64,000 bases of DNA from Candidatus Aenigmatarchaeota archaeon (lineage in GTDB: Archaea; Aenigmatarchaeota; Aenigmatarchaeia; CG10238-14; SCSR01): NCBI GenBank assembly GCA_038999725.1, contig JAWBWS010000004.1:10296-74295 (forward strand), written 5' to 3'. The position numbers are program-made. This document shows positions 54,001 through 63,000 of the stretch, in pieces. Within the stretch, counting starts at the first letter, position 1. Each line of letters opens with the position of its first letter.

Positions 54001-57000
54001 CAGACTTAAGAAAGAGTTCACCAAAAGCTATCAAAATACCTCTCTTGATTTTCTCCATATTTTCACTTTAAAAAACAAAAACACTTAAATATACTTATTT
54101 CCATTAATTTATTTGACTCATGAGCTTGGCGTTTAGGCTTTGATAACGTCAAGAGACAAAAGATGAAATGTCCTATTCTGGCTCATGAGAAATTGTCCTG
54201 AAGTGAAAGAGCTTCAGGTAGGTTGATTGGTGAAACCTAGAGGTAGGGCCCGCCAATTCTGGTTGATCCCGCCAGAGGCCACTGCTATCCGGCTTCTACT
54301 AAGCCATGCGAGTCGAGAGGGGAAAGCCCTCGGCGCACTGCTCCGTAATATGCAGTCAACCTACCCTTAGCTGGGGGATAATCTCGGGAAACTGAGGCTA
54401 ATACCCCATAGGTGCTTGGTACTGGAAGGTCCTAGCACCCAAAGCTTCGGCGGCTAAGGATGGGACTGCAGCCTATCAGCTTGTTGTGGAGGTAAAGGCT
54501 CCACAAGGCGATAACGGGTACGGGCTATGGAAGTAGGAGCCCGGAGATGGACTCTGAGACATGAGTCCAGGTCTTACGAGACGCAGCAGGCGAGAAACCT
54601 TTTCAATTCGCTCACGCGAGAAAAGGGAAGCCGGAGTGCCCTTGCTCTGCAAGGGCTTTTGCGGTCTGAAAACGGGACCGCGAATAAGGAGTGGGTAAGA
54701 CGGGTGCCAGCCGCCGCGGTAATACCCGCACTCCAAGTGGTGGCCACGATTATTGGGCCTAAAGCGTCCGTAGCCGGTTTGGTAAGTCCTCAGTGAAATC
54801 CTCTAGCAAACTAGAGGGCTTGCTGGGGATACTGCCAGACTTGAGACTGGGAGGGGGCAGGGGTACTCCCAGGGTAGGGGTGAAATCCTGTAATCCTGGG
54901 GGGACCACCTGTGGCGAAGGCGCCTGCCTGGAACAGGTCTGACGGTGAGGGACGAAAGCTAGGGGAGCGATCGGGATTAGATACCCCGGTACACGAGATT
55001 GGGTATCTTCTGATTCAAGATGAAGAAAAATCCCAAAATTCCAAGCTAGGATTTCCTAACTCGTGCGGGAAAGTCCTAGCCGTAAACGATGCCCTCTTGG
55101 TGTTGCAAGCTTCTCGGGAGCTTGCAGTGCCGGAGCGTAGGTGTTAAGAGGGCCGCCTGGGGAGTACGCCCGCAAGGGTGAAACTTAAGGGAATTGGCGG
55201 GGGAGCACACAAGGGGTGGGCGTTGCGGTTCAATTGGATTCAACGCCGGGAAAGGATAACATCAGTTAAGCTTAAATATCAGATATAGTAAAATTTACTA
55301 GTGGCGATATTATGGGTGTTTACGATGAAGTTTTGAATAATAAAACACTGGCTGCAAAAATATTACTTCCGTTGATAGAGTTTGAGTTTGGTTTAATGGG
55401 AGAAGATTCTCCAACATTAGTTCAAACACCCTCCAACCAAAAACAACTAGAAGTCATATTTAGTATATGCAAAAAATACGAGTGGACCACTTCCAAAAAT
55501 CTCAGAAAAAAGGGCGATAACTTGTATTTCAGACTTAAAAGGAGTGGTTTCAAAGAAATTTATCAGTTGGCCGGACCATTTGCAGATAAGGCAAAAGATG
55601 CTTGGGCCAAATTACTTATAGAACGAATTGGAAAAATTGGAGGATATAGAAAAAAAGAAAAACAAACACAAGAAAAAATATTGGGTATGTTAAATATGAA
55701 AAAGAACAAATGGTGGAAAATTGAAGAAATTTGTTTAAATTTAAGAATACTTCCAAGTACAATTAGAGAAAGTTTAAGAGATTTACAAAAAAGAAGATTA
55801 GTGAAAAGCAAAAAAATCGGAAAGGCTACTTATTGGAAAATTATCTGATGTTATCCCCCGAATCTTACCAGGGCCGACGGCAGGATGAAGGTCAGTCTGA
55901 AGGGCTTACCAGACAAGCCGAGAGGTGGTGCATGGCCATCGTCAGCTCGTACCGTGAGGCGTGCGCTTAAGTGCGTTAACGAGCGAGACCCACATCCCAT
56001 GTTGCTACTGCTTTCTCCGGAAAGCAGGCACTCATGGGAGACCGCTGGCGATAAGCCAGAGGAAGGAGTGGGCGACGGTAGACAGGTAAAAGGCTCATAA
56101 CCGGTTCATGTGAAAAAAGATGAACATGAACAGCGCCCAGAGCCTTACATGTCTTTTACCTGACCGAAGTCCGTATGCCCCGAATGCCCTGGGCCACACG
56201 CGACGCACAATGCGCGCCACAAAGGGATGCAACCCCGAAAGGGGAAGCGAATCCCCTAAAAGCGCGCCCAGTTCGGATCGAGGGCTGTAACTCGTCCTCG
56301 TGAAGCTGGAATCCCTAGTAAGCGAACGTCATCATCGTTCGCTGAATACGTCCCTGCTCCTTGCACACACTGCCCGTCAAGCCAATCGAGCGGAACTTCC
56401 TCGAGGCTTGTGATGAGCAAGTCGAGTGGAAGTTCTGTGAGAGGGGCTAATCTCGGGAGTCCGAAAAATTAAAGCTAAGATGAAAAAATTGGCTTGACCC
56501 TGAAAATTGATGATGAGTCGGAGGTGAATTGATTTGGCTAGATGGACTCCCTAGAGCCTAAAGTCGCCACAAGGTAGCCGTACGGGAACGTGCGGCTGGA
56601 TCACCTCCTTAAGATCCATTGCAACCCTACCTCAGGCACTAGAAAACAACCTACCTGAGAAAAAATTTTTAGTGTTTCAAAAATAGCGTAACCTATAGAG
56701 TTTTACCACTATGGATTTTATTAGTCTATTACTTTTAGAGGATAGTTTTTTAATAAAACGTCAATTCCTTTGGAGTTTTATAAAGTCTTGCTATCAATGC
56801 TCCACGTATATGGATTAATACACAATTTGAATCAAGGCTATATCCATCACTATCTTCTCTATCTTCTCGCGGGGCTTTGAAATTACAATATAAAAACAAA
56901 GACTCTTTATGTTTTTCATAAAACTCACTGTTCTTCATAGACATACGTTTAGCTATATCTTCATAATATTTTTCTGGAGCATGAACGGGTAACTCGAGGA

Positions 57001-60000: not shown

Positions 60001-63000
60001 TACATGGCCCGAGATAATATGCCACCTCCAACTAGAGCTGTCTGCTAGACTTATATTCTAAAAGCATATGTTCGTTTACTTAAGCCTAAGATTGTAATGG
60101 GGCTTGGAATAAAAGCAAGATACTCCCTAGCGCTTGCTTTTGGTATTCAAAACTTTGAAAAAGCATCTTATCCAGTAATTCGTGAAGGTATAGCGTTTTG
60201 GTGGACTTACCATCAAGCTCAAAGGAGCTTTCTCAAAAAACATTATGAAATTGAGACAAGATTTAAAATAATTGCGGAGTTTTTAAAAGACCAACTAGAG
60301 GGGTGTGAAAGGGTAAAGAGGGAATACAAACTCAGAAAATTGGAATTTGAGCCAGAAATTCTAATTGTGAGAGAATATTACGACTTAAGATTGCCGAAAA
60401 TTTGGTACTTCATAAATCGATTTTTCTTCTTCTTTGTCATAAATATGGGGAAACTTCATTTACATCTTTCTCCAAAGCCCTAGCAATTCTCTTTGCCAAA
60501 TTATTCGGTTTTCTCTCTTGAGCTTCTCTATAATCAGTTGATTATCCCTCTTATTGATTCTGACGTCTCTCCTGTTTTGAAAGTTTTTTTATTTGAGAAT
60601 TGTTTCTATCTCATCAATTTTTTTAATTCGGAAATTTGGCTTACATTCCCTACGCCATGCCAATTTAAGTAGTCCATCAAACTCAACTTTCACGGTTGTT
60701 ATACTCTCACATAATTTATTTCATTAATCTGCGAAGGTTTATCGTTTATGAATATTATTTCTTCCGGGAAGCCGTGTATTTTTTCATAATCAATTTTATA
60801 CCTTCTAATCGATCCTTTACATCTTCGCCAGTAATAAAAATATCATCAAAATAATCAAGAAATCCATTTTTCTTGATTCTATATCTTTTCATGCTTGGAA
60901 TTCCATCATTTCCTGAGATTATTATTAAAATTAGTCCCTTCTTTCTTAACGACTCTAGAATACTTTTTGAGTTAATACTATAGATTGTTGTATCCTCAAG
61001 AAAATCTTAAGCATCTCATCTAATCTTTCCTCGGTTACGGATATCCCAAATTCTCCAATCATAATTTCCTAGCGCGTCTTGTTCGTCTTCATAGGCCAAC
61101 GCCTTTTGAATAAACTTGTCCTTCACATCATTTTTCAACCCAAGATGATGAGCAATGAAGTCATACAGGGAAGGTAAACAAGCGTAACTATCCACTAAAA
61201 CACCATCAAAATCAAAAATACAAATTCTATATTTATTTTTCTTAAGACTCATTTTTACACCCTTTATTTACCCTTAAATGAAAATACACTTTTATCTGGT
61301 TGTAAGAAAACAAGGGATTAACAAACCTCCTATAATAAGTTGCGAAAGAGATGCTATGCCTAGAGTCATTATAAAGAAAGACGTGAGCATCAAACCGAAA
61401 TCTAATAAATCTAATAATAGCATAAATATCCTTTATTTATTGATAGTTTAAAAGATAGTTTAAAATATTCTTCTGTTTTTCTTTTGACTAACTTAATAAT
61501 TCGAAATCTTTATAAATACAAAATACAACTTATTTATTTGCCGGTGTCTGTATGTTTGCTTAGCTTAAGCATCGGCCTTCTTTATTTAGCGATGAGCTTG
61601 TTTTTCTTCTGATAAAAGATGAAGACGTGGACACCTTGCGAGCAATTCAACAGAATGCAACTCCTTATTAAAGAATAAGGGGTGAAGAGTGGAGGTTGAT
61701 GATAACATTTATTCGCCTGAAAAAAGATGAAGAGCGAACTGTCTATTTGAAACCATAAGATGACACTACCACAGGATCAAGGAGGTCACTAAGGCCTAAC
61801 AATGCTAACCCACTTGGTGGATAGCTTGGCTTCGGAGCCGAGGAAGTTCGTGGCAAGCTGCGATAAGCCTGGGGGAGCCGCATGCAGGCGTAGATCCCAG
61901 GATTAATGAATGGGAATCCTTGGCTTCGGCCAACTCCGAAAGGAGAGGGAACGCGCTGAATTGAAGCATCTTAGTAGGCGCAGGAAGAGAAATCAAATCG
62001 AGATGCCGTTAGTAGGGGCGACCGAAAGCGGCGAAGGGCAAACCGAACTGGTTGGCGAAGAGCCAAACAGGATGTGGAGTTGTAGGACCTGTGTCCTTCC
62101 TAACCAGCTGACCTGAAGTCTGCTGGAAAGCAGCGCCGTAGAGGGTGATAGCCCCGTAAGGGAAGGCTGGAAGGGAGATGGCAGGTATCCTGAGTACCAT
62201 TTCCTGGATGGGAAGTGGGAATCTGGGTGAATTAACATCCAACTCTAAATACTCCTGAAGTCCGATAGCGAACTAGTATGGTGACAGAAAGCTGAAAAGC
62301 ACCGCGAAAGCGGGGTGAAAAGAGCTTGAAACCAAGTGGGGATAGTCAGACACGGCCTGAAAGGTGCTTCTCCGAATGAAATCCGAAAGGAGAGTAAGAG
62401 GAGAAGCTTACAGGGTCGTGTCGTCCGTGCGGAAACACGGGGCAGGGAGTTTGTCTCAGTGGTGAGGTTAACTTGCTTTCGCAAGGTAGCCAAAGCGAAA
62501 GCGACAAGCTCGCAGCTCGTAAGAGCGAGGAGCGAGGTATGAAAGTGCCTGAAATCACTGGGACAAGACCCGAAGCCAGGTGATCTAACCCTGGGTAAGG
62601 CGAAGTCCCTCGAAAGGGGGATGGAAGCCTGCTACCGGTGCTGAGTTACAAATCGCTCGGGTGACCTGGGGTTAGTGGTGAAAAGCCTAACGAACCTGGC
62701 GATAGCTGGTTCCTCCCCAAATGCATCTCAGTGCAGCCTGGTCTGAGGCAGGTAATAGGGTAGAGCTACTGATTGGTTGGCCAAGGGCCGAAAGGTCCAG
62801 CCTTCCTGTCAAACTCCGAATCTATTACCGCCGTAGAAGACCGGAGTGAGGGTGTTGGGGTAAGCTCGGCACTCGAAAGGGGAACAACCCAACCTAGGGT
62901 TAAGGTCCCTAAATGCTAGCTAAACGAAGAAGGGTGTCCGAACTCCCAGACAGTAGGGCTGTAGGCTTAGAAGCAGCCATCAGATAATAAGTGCGTAACA

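Follow-up and report, generated by a model that had tools for sequence, protein, structure and literature searches.

Why should the sole 16S rRNA gene of a small archaeal genome be interrupted between its two decoding adenines, and what does the interrupting sequence do? The gene lies in the window, a stretch of 64,000 nucleotides from Candidatus Aenigmatarchaeota archaeon. It matches the Rfam model of archaeal SSU rRNA over its full length (RF01959, 1201.8 bits, model positions 1-1478), and a BLAST search of its exons against the whole genome returns a single locus, so the 16S gene is single-copy. It contains the following inserts:

54256..56609, + strand: sole 16S rRNA gene in the assembly, with four BHB introns (Rfam RF01959)
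54991..55071, + strand: intron 1, 81 nt, from alignment and sequence; BHB CCCG 54985-88 / CGGG 55066-69
55253..55862, + strand: intron 2, 610 nt; BHB CGGG 55247-50 / CCCG 55857-60, bulges AAA and AAU
56082..56168, + strand: intron 3, 87 nt, from alignment; BHB CGGU 56076-79 / ACCG 56163-66
56450..56561, + strand: intron 4, 112 nt (corrected); BHB GGGC 56444-47 / GCCU 56556-59, bulges UAA and AAA

The first three inserts measure 82, 611 and 84 nt in the Rfam alignment, as an earlier note on this DNA had reported, and its coordinates for introns 1-3 were reproduced by alignment with L035 and L014, two relatives free of these introns; the alignment opens an 81-nt gap at 54991-55071, one of 610 nt at about 55250-55859 and one of 87 nt at 56082-56168. 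The 4-bp helix with two 3-nt bulges that had been proposed at every insert is possible by sequence at all four. Introns 2 and 4 show this motif in the MFE fold, intron 2 exactly so and with a joint that agrees with relatives; for introns 1 and 3 the fold prefers rival pairings. Inspection of the sequence revealed no outer exon-exon helix flanking the motif at any of the four introns. Cutting after the second bulge base, a rule validated within the same gene by introns 2 and 3, reproduces the joints of intron-less relatives at all four introns. The earlier claim that conserved sequence is restored at the four joints therefore stands for introns 1-3 and fails for intron 4 as originally cut: a 110-nt intron (56451-56560) leaves four A at the joint, whereas relatives show two, the 13 loci that are intron-free at this spot reading ...GGGG(C/U)UAAGUCG.... 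We place intron 4 at 56450-56561 because no other register gives the joint of intron-less relatives; the GGGC/GCCU register is also that of the MFE fold, and with it the spliced 16S, claimed to be 1,466 nt, is corrected to 1,464 nt. The predicted joint, ...GGGGCUA-AGUCGCC... (cut at the hyphen), falls between the equivalents of A1492 and A1493, the two decoding adenines, and in this genome intron 4 interrupts the helix-44 3' strand itself and does not, as had been supposed, separate helix 44 from helix 45.

Inserts of this kind could instead remain part of the mature rRNA and form expansion segments, a fate suggested for some rRNA insertions in small-genome lineages, and the AT-richness of the inserts and the surface-compatible places of introns 1-3 would suit it. 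We consider it most improbable, however, as each of the four inserts has a BHB motif, leaves conserved sequence at the joint when removed and is missing at the same spot in relatives, EndA and RtcB are encoded, and a retained intron 4 would leave the decoding adenines 112 nt apart.

What intron 4 carries is a complete box C/D sRNA, with boxes and guides at the positions previously claimed:

56473..56539, + strand: box C/D sRNA; terminal stem 56473-79 / 56533-39
56480-86 and 56500-03, + strand: box C (AUGAAAA) and box D' (CUGA)
56510-16 and 56529-32, + strand: box C' (AUGAUGA) and box D (UUGA)
56488-98 and 56520-27, + strand: D' guide and D guide
56376..56386, + strand: where the D' guide pairs, an 11-nt perfect match in the helix-44 5' strand
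56601..56608, + strand: where the D guide pairs, over 8 bp, with UCACCUCC at the anti-Shine-Dalgarno 3' end of the 16S

We give a probability of about 0.7 to the reading that the entire core of intron 4, itself a protein-spliced (BHB) intron, is a functional box C/D guide RNA. An alignment of 26 distinct copies of the sRNA has 29 invariant columns, which include boxes D', C' and D. A 12-nt spacer separates C' from D in 25/26 copies and C from D' in 20/26 (13 nt in this genome), and the terminal stem has at least 5 bp in 19 of the 26. Boxes C (AUGAAAA) and D (UUGA) depart from the consensus. Position 6 of box C is A in 25/26 copies and faces the invariant first U of box D, so that an A-U pair stands in for the usual G-C. 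The 11-bp pairing of the D' guide with helix 44 was confirmed, none of 300 shuffles of the guide reaching 11 nt, and its fifth position indeed faces A56379, the equivalent of A1408. At least 8 contiguous pairs, counted from guide position 2, are formed at 32 of 33 loci; in the relative L010 the pairing is broken after 6 bp. Guide and target covary, with a G-to-A change in the target met by C-to-U in the guide in L035 and L153, members of two different families; in all, the pairs show two compensatory changes and a G-U intermediate at four loci. In every copy the D' guide keeps the same offset from box D', as a methylation site requires. The D guide matches the anti-Shine-Dalgarno end over the 8 bp reported, a length near chance here, as 44 of 300 shuffles reach it, and a complete 23S offers no better match. 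Its core, GGAGGUGA, is invariant in 26/26 copies, and the match lengthens to 10 bp in tRNA-intron copies from other families; since the target is itself invariant, covariation is impossible there.

The distribution of the sRNA speaks to whether the guide depends on its present host. Counting matches that cover the core, BLAST finds the core of intron 4 in 38 of 68 other family genomes, the number given before; any match at E<=0.01 brings this to 42/68. Of the 117 genomes of the order, a model search detects the sRNA in 80, almost always as a single copy. The host site does vary among relatives: across 52 loci it is the tRNA-Ser(UGA) intron (18 loci) or one of four 16S positions (site C 15, A 9, B 9, D 1), of which the three other than this genome's lie in the 16S 3' minor domain. 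In this genome itself the tRNA-Ser(UGA) intron is just 12 nt long and lacks the sRNA. Copies in tRNA introns bear the same 16S-directed guides, distant from any 16S exon, and so must act in trans there; judged from these sequences, the guide would require only some BHB intron for its release.

Changing host sites are also what a selfish mobile intron would produce, its "guides" being exon leftovers copied at insertion and useless to the cell. The D' guide does look as if the helix-44 3' strand had been copied and perfected, and intron 2 contains a homing-endonuclease-like ORF:

55312..55848, + strand: intron-2 ORF, 178 aa; LAGLIDADG-like domain at about aa 1-110, winged helix at about aa 112-178

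This ORF had been described as having no family and no usable fold. The first part holds for Pfam, where no family scores above its cut-off; the second does not, as the ORF folds confidently in the model as a LAGLIDADG-like domain followed by a winged helix (pLDDT 91.9, pTM 0.83). Modelled alone, the N-terminal domain draws structural matches almost exclusively from LAGLIDADG homing endonucleases, and for the C-terminal domain the matches are winged helices (Z ~11). The ORF has 11 homologues of 48-66% identity, and a relative (L011) has a 202-nt version of intron 2 that lacks it. A purely selfish origin of the guides is nonetheless very unlikely. The sRNA core is nearly invariant over five families while its flanks diverge freely, guide and target covary, box spacing and K-turn pairing are retained, the sRNA is nearly always present once, and the 16S-directed guides persist in tRNA introns far from 16S exons.

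L7Ae, Nop5, fibrillarin, EndA and RtcB are all encoded, above Pfam cut-offs, and suggest how a guide RNA in intron 4 might work. In the pre-16S, GGGC of the helix-44 3' strand would pair with the end of the intron to form the splicing motif, leaving the 5' strand of helix 44 free. L7Ae, Nop5 and fibrillarin would bind the intron, and the D' guide would pair over 11 bp with the free strand and bring fibrillarin to the A1408-equivalent ribose. The D guide would hold the anti-Shine-Dalgarno tail (8 bp), where methylation may also occur. The splicing endonuclease would then cut both bulges and RtcB would join the decoding adenines; RtcB probably also circularises the intron, and the released sRNP could act in trans. 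We infer splicing, RNP assembly, methylation and circularisation from the motifs, covariation, distribution and enzymes present. As a whole the earlier observation is partly confirmed, and its main readings, all of which survived testing, are supported.

Related elements occur in introns 1 and 3 and upstream of the 23S gene:

55010-13 and 55020-26, + strand: intron 1 K-loop (CUGA and AUGAAGA), retained in 6/6 loci with intron 1
55001-08, + strand: intron 1 D' guide, GGGUAUCU, facing exon 54979-86
56105-56130, + strand: conserved K-loop hairpin of intron 3 (UUCAU-GUGA-loop-AUGAA-CAUGAA), present in the MFE fold
61793..64000, + strand: 5' part of the 23S rRNA gene, to the contig end (Rfam RF02540, model 1-2196)
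61587..61644, + strand: 23S leader unit 1; K-turn of box C region 61591-98 and box D GCGA 61638-41
61609-12, 61619-25 and 61628-36, + strand: unit 1 box D' (CUGA), box C' (AUGAAGA) and D guide (UGGACACCU)
61694..61754, + strand: 23S leader unit 2; terminal stem GGUU 61694-97 / AACC 61751-54
61699-705 and 61717-20, + strand: unit 2 box C (AUGAUAA) and box D' (CUGA)
61727-33, 61734-44 and 61747-50, + strand: unit 2 box C' (AUGAAGA), D guide and box D (UUGA)

The half C/D unit proposed for intron 1 was borne out, K-loop and guide both being retained in 6/6 loci. The 8-bp match of the guide is near chance alone (62/300 shuffles reach it); the 3' part of the intron, AGCUAGGA, stands opposite the 3' exon, and in the MFE fold intron 1 pairs with both exons. 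The intron 3 hairpin has no free guide, and its stem covaries in L016. Both K-loops are probably of the L7Ae type. As to the 23S, its 3' 424 nt (model 2596-2987) are found at one end of contig C6, and its middle is unassembled. The earlier note had recognized one C/D unit in the leader and, for it, a match of 10 nt to the 424-nt piece; the unit and its match hold, and the leader contains two units, not one. In unit 1, the K-turn pairs 3b-3n and 4b-4n covary, and the guide lies opposite the 23S A loop, with which it covaries across genomes; its fifth position is opposite the U2552 equivalent, and one A.C mismatch to the A loop is present in this genome and genus. In unit 2, pairing of the terminal stem holds in 100% of cells, 6/24 having CG for UA, the K-turn covaries, and the D guide core is invariant in 28/28 leaders. 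Its 10-nt match in the C6 piece is reached by 4 of 300 shuffles and is the best in a complete 23S also. Unit 2 appears to be aimed at the A2602 region, and both units at the peptidyl-transferase region. The base opposite the fifth position of the unit 2 guide moves by one according to whether a relative has a 13-nt or a 12-nt spacer, and such a shifting target is easier to reconcile with pairing than with methylation at a fixed site.

Pairing roles raise the alternative that the intron-borne C/D RNP mainly chaperones folding or acts as an assembly checkpoint instead of guiding methylation, in that by holding the helix-44 5' strand and the anti-Shine-Dalgarno it would permit no decoding site and no translation before intron excision. 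Reviews have raised chaperone roles for archaeal sRNPs (PMC3608112). The variable target base of unit 2 and the MFE pairing of intron 1 with both exons are in keeping with this, as are the shortness of the D guide, the splitting of the decoding adenines of the only 16S gene by intron 4, and the fact that the natural partner bases of the D' target are taken up by the BHB helix. We judge it unlikely as the main function, though a good deal less so than the selfish origin: with a tRNA-intron host in 18/52 loci, gating of 16S folding in cis is impossible there, the D' guide keeps an identical register to box D' in all copies, and fibrillarin is retained in a 730-kb genome.

A working guide in a BHB intron has precedents. 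The euryarchaeal pre-tRNA-Trp intron (Haloferax volcanii; sR50 of Pyrococcus) is a complete C/D guide that is freed by the tRNA splicing enzymes and directs ribose methylation of its own host transcript (PMC7994747). Intron 4 is similarly filled by a C/D guide predicted to be aimed at the host transcript, but its host is the 16S gene and its target the decoding site about 70 nt upstream. Nanoarchaeum equitans, also a DPANN archaeon with a tiny genome, has C/D sRNAs in a tRNA-Met intron and in dicistronic tRNA-sRNA precursors, and on the basis of permuted and circular forms the sRNAs were suggested to be mobile (PMC3491384); the available part of that paper describes no rRNA-intron host, whereas here one sRNA family can be traced in five intron hosts. 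The same target bases have been predicted for C/D guides elsewhere, 16S A1408 in Sulfolobus acidocaldarius and N. equitans and 23S U2552 in five species (PMC4644070); those guides are described as free-standing genes. In Thermoproteales, 16S BHB introns are listed at 13 loci, many with LAGLIDADG homing endonucleases and others as short hairpins (PMC4496867); loci 803 and 978 correspond to introns 1 and 2 by our own numbering, and the part of that text available mentions neither sRNA cargo (the word "sRNA" is absent) nor a helix 44-45 locus. Vertebrate intron-encoded C/D snoRNAs are likewise freed from introns of host transcripts, and some snoRNAs, such as the pre-rRNA chaperone U3, act by pairing with pre-rRNA and not by methylation (PMC7994747, PMC3608112); as described, however, the intron-encoded ones reside in spliceosomal introns of mRNA-type genes and are processed by exonucleases, unlike a BHB intron inside the target rRNA. 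With guides in intron 4 and the 23S leader and K-loops in introns 1 and 3, this small genome would embed guides in the very precursors that they serve. A guide for the 16S decoding site would thus be carried inside an intron of the same rRNA and, in relatives, within other introns.

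Judged by its sequence and its conservation among relatives, the fourth intron of the 16S rRNA gene is a real bulge-helix-bulge (BHB) intron that carries a box C/D sRNA as its cargo. The assembly comprises 729,769 bases in 9 contigs and is 93% complete, and the window forms the final 64 kb of contig C4. A scan of 52000-64000 with Rfam found three RNA genes:

54256-56609, archaeal SSU rRNA, full length
59443-59515, tRNA-Ala(UGC)
61793-64000, LSU rRNA, model positions 1-2,196, cut by the contig end

A search of the genome for short motifs of 23S domain V found none; Rfam then placed the 3' 424 nt of the 23S gene at the C6 contig end, and the stretch between this piece and the one on C4 is unassembled. 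The 16S and 23S genes are each present in one copy in the assembly and do not form one simple operon, as a H+-pyrophosphatase gene on the opposite strand separates them. The 16S leader is complementary to its trailer at 54208-54221 with 56656-56668 (CUUCAGGUAGGUUG with CAACCUACCUGAG) and at 54237-54249 with 56625-56637 (CCUAGAGGUAGGG with CCCUACCUCAGG), and these segments are predicted to form the expected processing stem. On contig C6, the reverse strand beside the 3' end of the 23S gene shows a corresponding match to the 23S leader (61763-61803). The interval from tRNA-Ala to the 23S leader (59570-61260) contains just short ORFs without matches and, at 61016-61252 on the minus strand, a fragment encoding 78 N-terminal residues of a HAD-type hydrolase (Pfam matches below threshold), which together look like decayed genes.

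The printed part of the Rfam alignment shows SSU inserts of 82, 611 and 84 nt, and alignment with two intron-less relatives places gaps at 54991-55071, ~55250-55859 and 56082-56168. As the earlier note proposed, there are four introns, each of which can form a BHB motif with a 4-bp central helix and a 3-nt bulge on each opposite strand:

Intron 1, helix CCCG / CGGG, bulges GUA / AAA
Intron 2, helix CGGG / CCCG, bulges AAA / AAU
Intron 3, helix CGGU / ACCG, bulges AGA / AAG
Intron 4, 56450-56561 (112 nt), helix GGGC (56444-47) / GCCU (56556-59), bulges UAA / AAA, based on the MFE fold and the restored joint

Cleavage was placed behind the second base of each bulge. Applied to introns 2 and 3, this rule yields joints that equal those of intron-less relatives in length and sequence context and is therefore validated within the same 16S gene; it is also compatible with intron 1. 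In the MFE folds the motif is present for introns 2 and 4 and absent for introns 1 and 3, as exon pairing competes with the central helix of intron 3, and intron 1 pairs with both exons instead. None of the four motifs has an outer exon-exon helix, and they are thus of the relaxed type. The genome encodes both the splicing endonuclease EndA (94.1 bits) and the ligase RtcB (548.5 bits).

Removal of introns 1-3 with the boundaries first proposed restores the uninterrupted, conserved 16S sequence, and intron 4 does so solely as 56450-56561. Thirteen loci that lack an intron at this spot read GGGG(C/U)UAAGUCG, with two A residues. The register chosen in the earlier note (GGCU/AGCC, 110 nt) leaves four at the joint, two too many compared with these relatives, and its lengths of 110 nt for the intron and 1,466 nt for the spliced rRNA accordingly give way to 112 and 1,464 nt, respectively. 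The corrected joint lies between what we take to be the equivalents of A1492 and A1493 (E. coli numbering, anchored on the CCCGUCA context).

A separate observation concerns the 16S rRNA at 56562-56575, which reads AAGUCGCCACAAGG. A CCAC or UCAC at this place is common to the whole family; most organisms have a UAAC core at the corresponding position.

The sRNA within intron 4 is assembled from the following elements:

56473-79, terminal stem, 5' arm
56480-86, box C, AUGAAAA
56488-98, D' guide
56500-03, box D', CUGA
56510-16, box C', AUGAUGA
56520-27, D guide
56529-32, box D, UUGA
56533-39, terminal stem, 3' arm

The consensus boxes of such RNAs are RUGAUGA (C) and CUGA (D), which can form a K-turn beside the terminal stem. 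The terminal boxes AUGAAAA and UUGA retain the GA dinucleotides for the sheared pairs. Thirty loci of the family yielded 26 distinct copies; position 6 of box C is an A in 25 of them and faces the first U of box D, which is invariant, so that an A-U pair stands in for the usual G-C of the K-turn. Box D' (CUGA) and box C' ((A/G)UGAUGA) are invariant in all 26 copies, as is box D. The C'-D spacer measures 12 nt in 25/26, and the C-D' spacer 12 nt in 20, 13 nt in 5 (the genome under study included) and 14 nt in 1. The terminal stem, 7 bp here, keeps at least 5 bp abutting the boxes in 19/26 copies with sequences that differ by lineage. This retention of boxes, spacers and stem bears out the view that the intron holds a complete box C/D sRNA. 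A circularly permuted molecule, in which the perfect internal boxes would be the true C/D pair, was also considered; we retain the linear order, with which both the terminal stem and spacers of 12 nt agree. A relaxed pattern for full C/D units, run over the whole genome with D' fixed as CUGA and thus not a census, found only intron 4 and a unit in the 23S leader (unit 2, below). L7Ae, Nop5 and fibrillarin are encoded, each above its Pfam cut-off and with Nop5 adjoining fibrillarin, and we infer that the intron is spliced and circularised and that its sRNA assembles into an RNP that directs methylation.

The D' guide pairs through positions 2-12 with 56376-56386 in a perfect match of 11 nt, which none of 300 guide shuffles equals anywhere in the rRNAs. 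The base facing the fifth nucleotide upstream of box D' is A56379, the A after CCCGUC, which is the equivalent of A1408 (E. coli numbering). Guide and target could be compared on a single stretch of sequence in 33 loci, and 32 of these retain 8-11 contiguous pairs from guide position 2; the pairing of one locus, L010, is broken after 6 bp. Two loci from different families (L035 and L153) have a G to A change in the target matched by a C to U change in the guide, and four loci show a G-U intermediate. The assignment of this guide to helix 44 thus stands, on match length, shuffles and covariation alike. The D guide (GGAGGUGA) matches the final 16S bases, 56601-56608, over 8 bp, a length near chance by itself (44/300 shuffles). 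Its core is invariant in 26/26 copies, and in copies from other families the guide extends to AAGGAGGUGA, with 10 bp. A better target was sought in a complete 23S rRNA, where the best match is 7 nt.

The exon half of the BHB helix, GGGC, is part of the 3' strand of helix 44 and is the mature partner of the bases under the D' guide. Because these partner bases sit in the BHB helix, the splicing motif would free the target of the guide. In the precursor, BHB formation would release this target, and later splicing would let helix 44 close.

The occurrence of the sRNA and its intron hosts were read across the order. BLAST rows covering the core of intron 4 occur in 38 of 68 other genomes of the family, the same count as that reported before. 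Of the 117 genomes scored in the order, 80 contain the sRNA according to a sequence-only covariance model, nearly throughout with one match per genome. By family, the matches number 47/68 in f1 (leaving out the genome under study), 17/23 in f3, 3/3 in f4, 11/19 in f6, 1/1 in f7 and 0/1 in both f2 and f5; because many of these genomes are incomplete, a missing match does not show absence. Host context was read at 52 loci from 51 genome bins. Four loci left unplaced by the script (three classed as 'other', one without a core match) were assigned to site C by eye.

Intron hosts of the sRNA and the BHB helix at each
tRNA intron, 18 loci, anticodon-loop bases with the intron 3' end
16S site A (1492|1493), 9 loci, GGGC / GCCU, restores conserved sequence
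16S site B (1499|1500), 9 loci, GUCG / CGAU, restores conserved sequence
16S site C (1513|1514), 15 loci, GCCG / CGGU, restores conserved sequence
16S site D (1520|1521), 1 locus, GGGA / UCCU, restores conserved sequence

The host site therefore does differ among relatives, as previously claimed. For site B a register UCGU/GCGA was discarded at the joint, like the 110-nt register of intron 4, in favour of GUCG/CGAU. Rfam end coordinates had also suggested copies in the 16S trailer; by their sequences these copies sit in introns, located at site B or site C. The host tRNA has a long variable arm and the anticodon loop CUUGAG-, and ARAGORN identifies the version in the genome under study, which has a 12-nt intron only, as tRNA-Ser(UGA). 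ARAGORN made no call for the intron-bearing tRNAs in 8 loci; in 4 of them, and in 6 of a further 20, a match to the Rfam tRNA model extends across the sRNA (10 loci in total). Among the copies with context read, all those of f3, f4 and f7 lie in the tRNA intron, apart from one f3 bin with 6% contamination, and on this ground, rather than from a tree, the tRNA is likely the ancestral location of the sRNA.

Two observations on individual genomes were made along the way. One 1.7-Mb bin with 4% contamination (G055; loci L011 and L125) contains two sRNA copies, each in its own 16S gene, one at site A and the other at site B, and the bin probably represents two organisms. In four f6 loci (L154, L155, L156 and L167), the intron at site C that holds the sRNA is accompanied by a second small 16S intron near site B, after GUCGCCAC. 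This second intron, with an AUGAUGA box and a CUGG, may be another K-turn element.

By comparison of these loci, the signal for one guide relocating among intron hosts is unusually clear. All 16S positions that host the sRNA fall between the two targets of its guides. A bolder proposal is that one functional guide moved repeatedly from the tRNA-Ser(UGA) intron to at least four positions in the 16S 3' minor domain, homing by means of its own pairing, and we regard this as rather improbable. Were it true, BHB introns would transpose as RNA through reversed endonuclease and ligase steps followed by copying into DNA, pairing of the guide to helix 44 and the 3' tail would pick the landing site, and a guide RNA would serve an archaeal intron both as cargo and as homing device.

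Introns 1 and 3 hold other K-turn elements. The K-loop of intron 1 (CUGA, a short loop and AUGAAGA) is kept in 6/6 loci that have the intron, and because the terminal C/D pair is absent, the earlier description of a half unit fits. Its upstream guide GGGUAUCU faces the exon bases AGAUACCC, which precede the splice site by 12 nt, in an 8-bp match that is near chance alone (62/300 shuffles), and the 3' segment of the intron is complementary to the 3' exon. In intron 3, GUGA lies opposite AUGAA in a hairpin extended by a helix that covaries in one relative (L016), and both would-be guides are paired with each other; we read this hairpin as a putative L7Ae site and not as a guide. A further half C/D unit was seen in the 5' leader of tRNA-Ser(UGA), at C3:100970-101098, outside the window, and in L017, L018, L019, L029, L032, L034, L157 and L159. 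It consists of a guide, CUGA, a short loop and GAUGAUGA, and ends 3 nt before the tRNA. Before splicing, the anticodon loop of the pre-tRNA is complementary to this guide, whose fifth position faces U34, and the guide and the initial bases of the intron covary (GGCUCAAGG with ...GAGCC in the genome under study, GACUCAAGG with ...GAGUC in relatives).

Intron 2 encodes a 178-residue protein with 11 homologues (48-66% identity, mostly on short contigs), one of which is filed in NCBI as an Aenigmatarchaeote; one relative has intron 2 at 202 nt, without the ORF. The earlier note had described the protein as having neither a family nor a usable fold. The first part holds for the LAGLIDADG families of Pfam, which match none of the 12 members at E<=1, and the second does not, as AlphaFold supplied with the homologue alignment gave a model with pLDDT 91.9 and pTM 0.83. 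Its residues ~112-178 form a winged helix (Z ~11, rmsd 1.1-1.4 over ~61 residues). Because winged-helix matches filled the PDB search with the whole model, the N-terminal 112 residues were modeled alone (pLDDT 82.9). The best 50 Foldseek rows are nearly all LAGLIDADG homing endonucleases (I-CreI, I-CvuI, I-MsoI, I-AniI, I-CeuI and similar), with probabilities of 0.93-1.00, query TM scores of 0.46-0.63 and E-values no better than 0.014-0.12, and the modeled domain has the alpha-beta-beta-alpha-beta-beta-alpha core of these enzymes. Its first long helix ends in LLPLIEFEF, in which E23 and E25 are invariant in 12/12 members and the glycines of the motif are replaced; this region may align with the catalytic Asp of the LAGLIDADG motif. 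From the model, we read the protein as a diverged, single-motif protein of the homing-endonuclease type.

Alignment of 28 family 23S leaders shows two C/D units upstream of the 23S gene:

61587-61644, leader unit 1, first described here
61694-61754, leader unit 2

A single leader unit had been reported, with a 10-nt match; unit 2 and its match hold, and the count rises with unit 1. In unit 2, all cells (100%) of the 4-bp terminal stem are paired, CG takes the place of UA at two positions in 6/24 sequences, and the K-turn pair 4b-4n alternates between UA and AU. The covariation score of unit 2 is reached by 0/500 shuffles, and slid controls are all lower. The core of its D guide, CGAACUGUC, is invariant in 28/28 leaders and has a 10-nt pairing partner, AGACAGUUCG, in the 3' piece of the 23S gene (4/300 shuffles), which is also the best match within the complete 23S rRNA of a relative. 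We take this target to be A2598-G2607, around A2602. Where relatives have a 13-nt spacer, guide position 5 faces the A2600 equivalent, and where the spacer is 12 nt, the C2601 equivalent; this shift weakens the case for methylation at a fixed site. In many relatives, a 147-nt query covering the A loop and H93 (C6:20726-20872) is split at query positions 57, 84/85 or 98, the last being the first base of the 10-nt match, which points to 23S introns at or beside the unit 2 target.

Double changes occur in each of the K-turn pairs 3b-3n and 4b-4n of unit 1, and 0/500 shuffles reach its covariation score. Its D guide, UGG(A/G)CACCU, faces the A loop of 23S, AGGUG(U/C)CCA. Position 5 of the guide lies against the first U of the loop, the U2552 equivalent. 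In the nine genomes where both are readable, the variable position is G-C in three, A-U in three and A opposite C in three, the last being the genome under study and two of its genus (G024 and G025). Unit 1 thus covaries with its A-loop target across the family, with an imperfect pairing in the genome under study. For neither unit was a convincing target found for the D' guide, which varies among relatives (best matches of 6-8 nt; 47/300 and 300/300 shuffles). Upstream of unit 1, at 61540-61577, lies a hairpin-like segment GCCGGUG...CAUCGGC, whose CAUCGG part is conserved among relatives.

A C/D sRNA within the BHB intron of tRNA-Trp is known (PMC7994747, in excerpt), and one in the tRNA-Met intron of N. 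equitans has been proposed (PMC3491384, in excerpt). A1408 and U2552 are among the C/D targets predicted in other archaea, according to an excerpt of PMC4644070. The 16S introns of Thermoproteales occupy 13 loci and contain homing endonucleases or hairpins (PMC4496867); the excerpted text of that paper mentions neither an sRNA nor a locus in helices 44-45. A search of full-text literature returned no C/D sRNA borne by an rRNA intron, and the excerpted text of reviews from 2013 and 2021 (PMC3608112, PMC7994747) names no such case. As far as these sources extend, intron-borne C/D guides of archaea were previously known for tRNA genes only, and the rRNA-intron host appears to be new.

Introns at 16S positions ~1492-1520 disrupt the site of common 1492R-type primers. 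The leader-embedded guides to the A loop illustrate a way in which guides that have no separate promoter can be expressed from a genome of 0.73 Mb, and one sRNA found in five intron hosts across an order provides a data set on the relocation of BHB introns and guide RNAs. Intron 4 splits the two decoding adenines of the sole 16S gene and carries a guide for a base across the helix, and because a guide-bearing intron lies at this point, modification of the decoding site, folding and splicing would be physically coupled.
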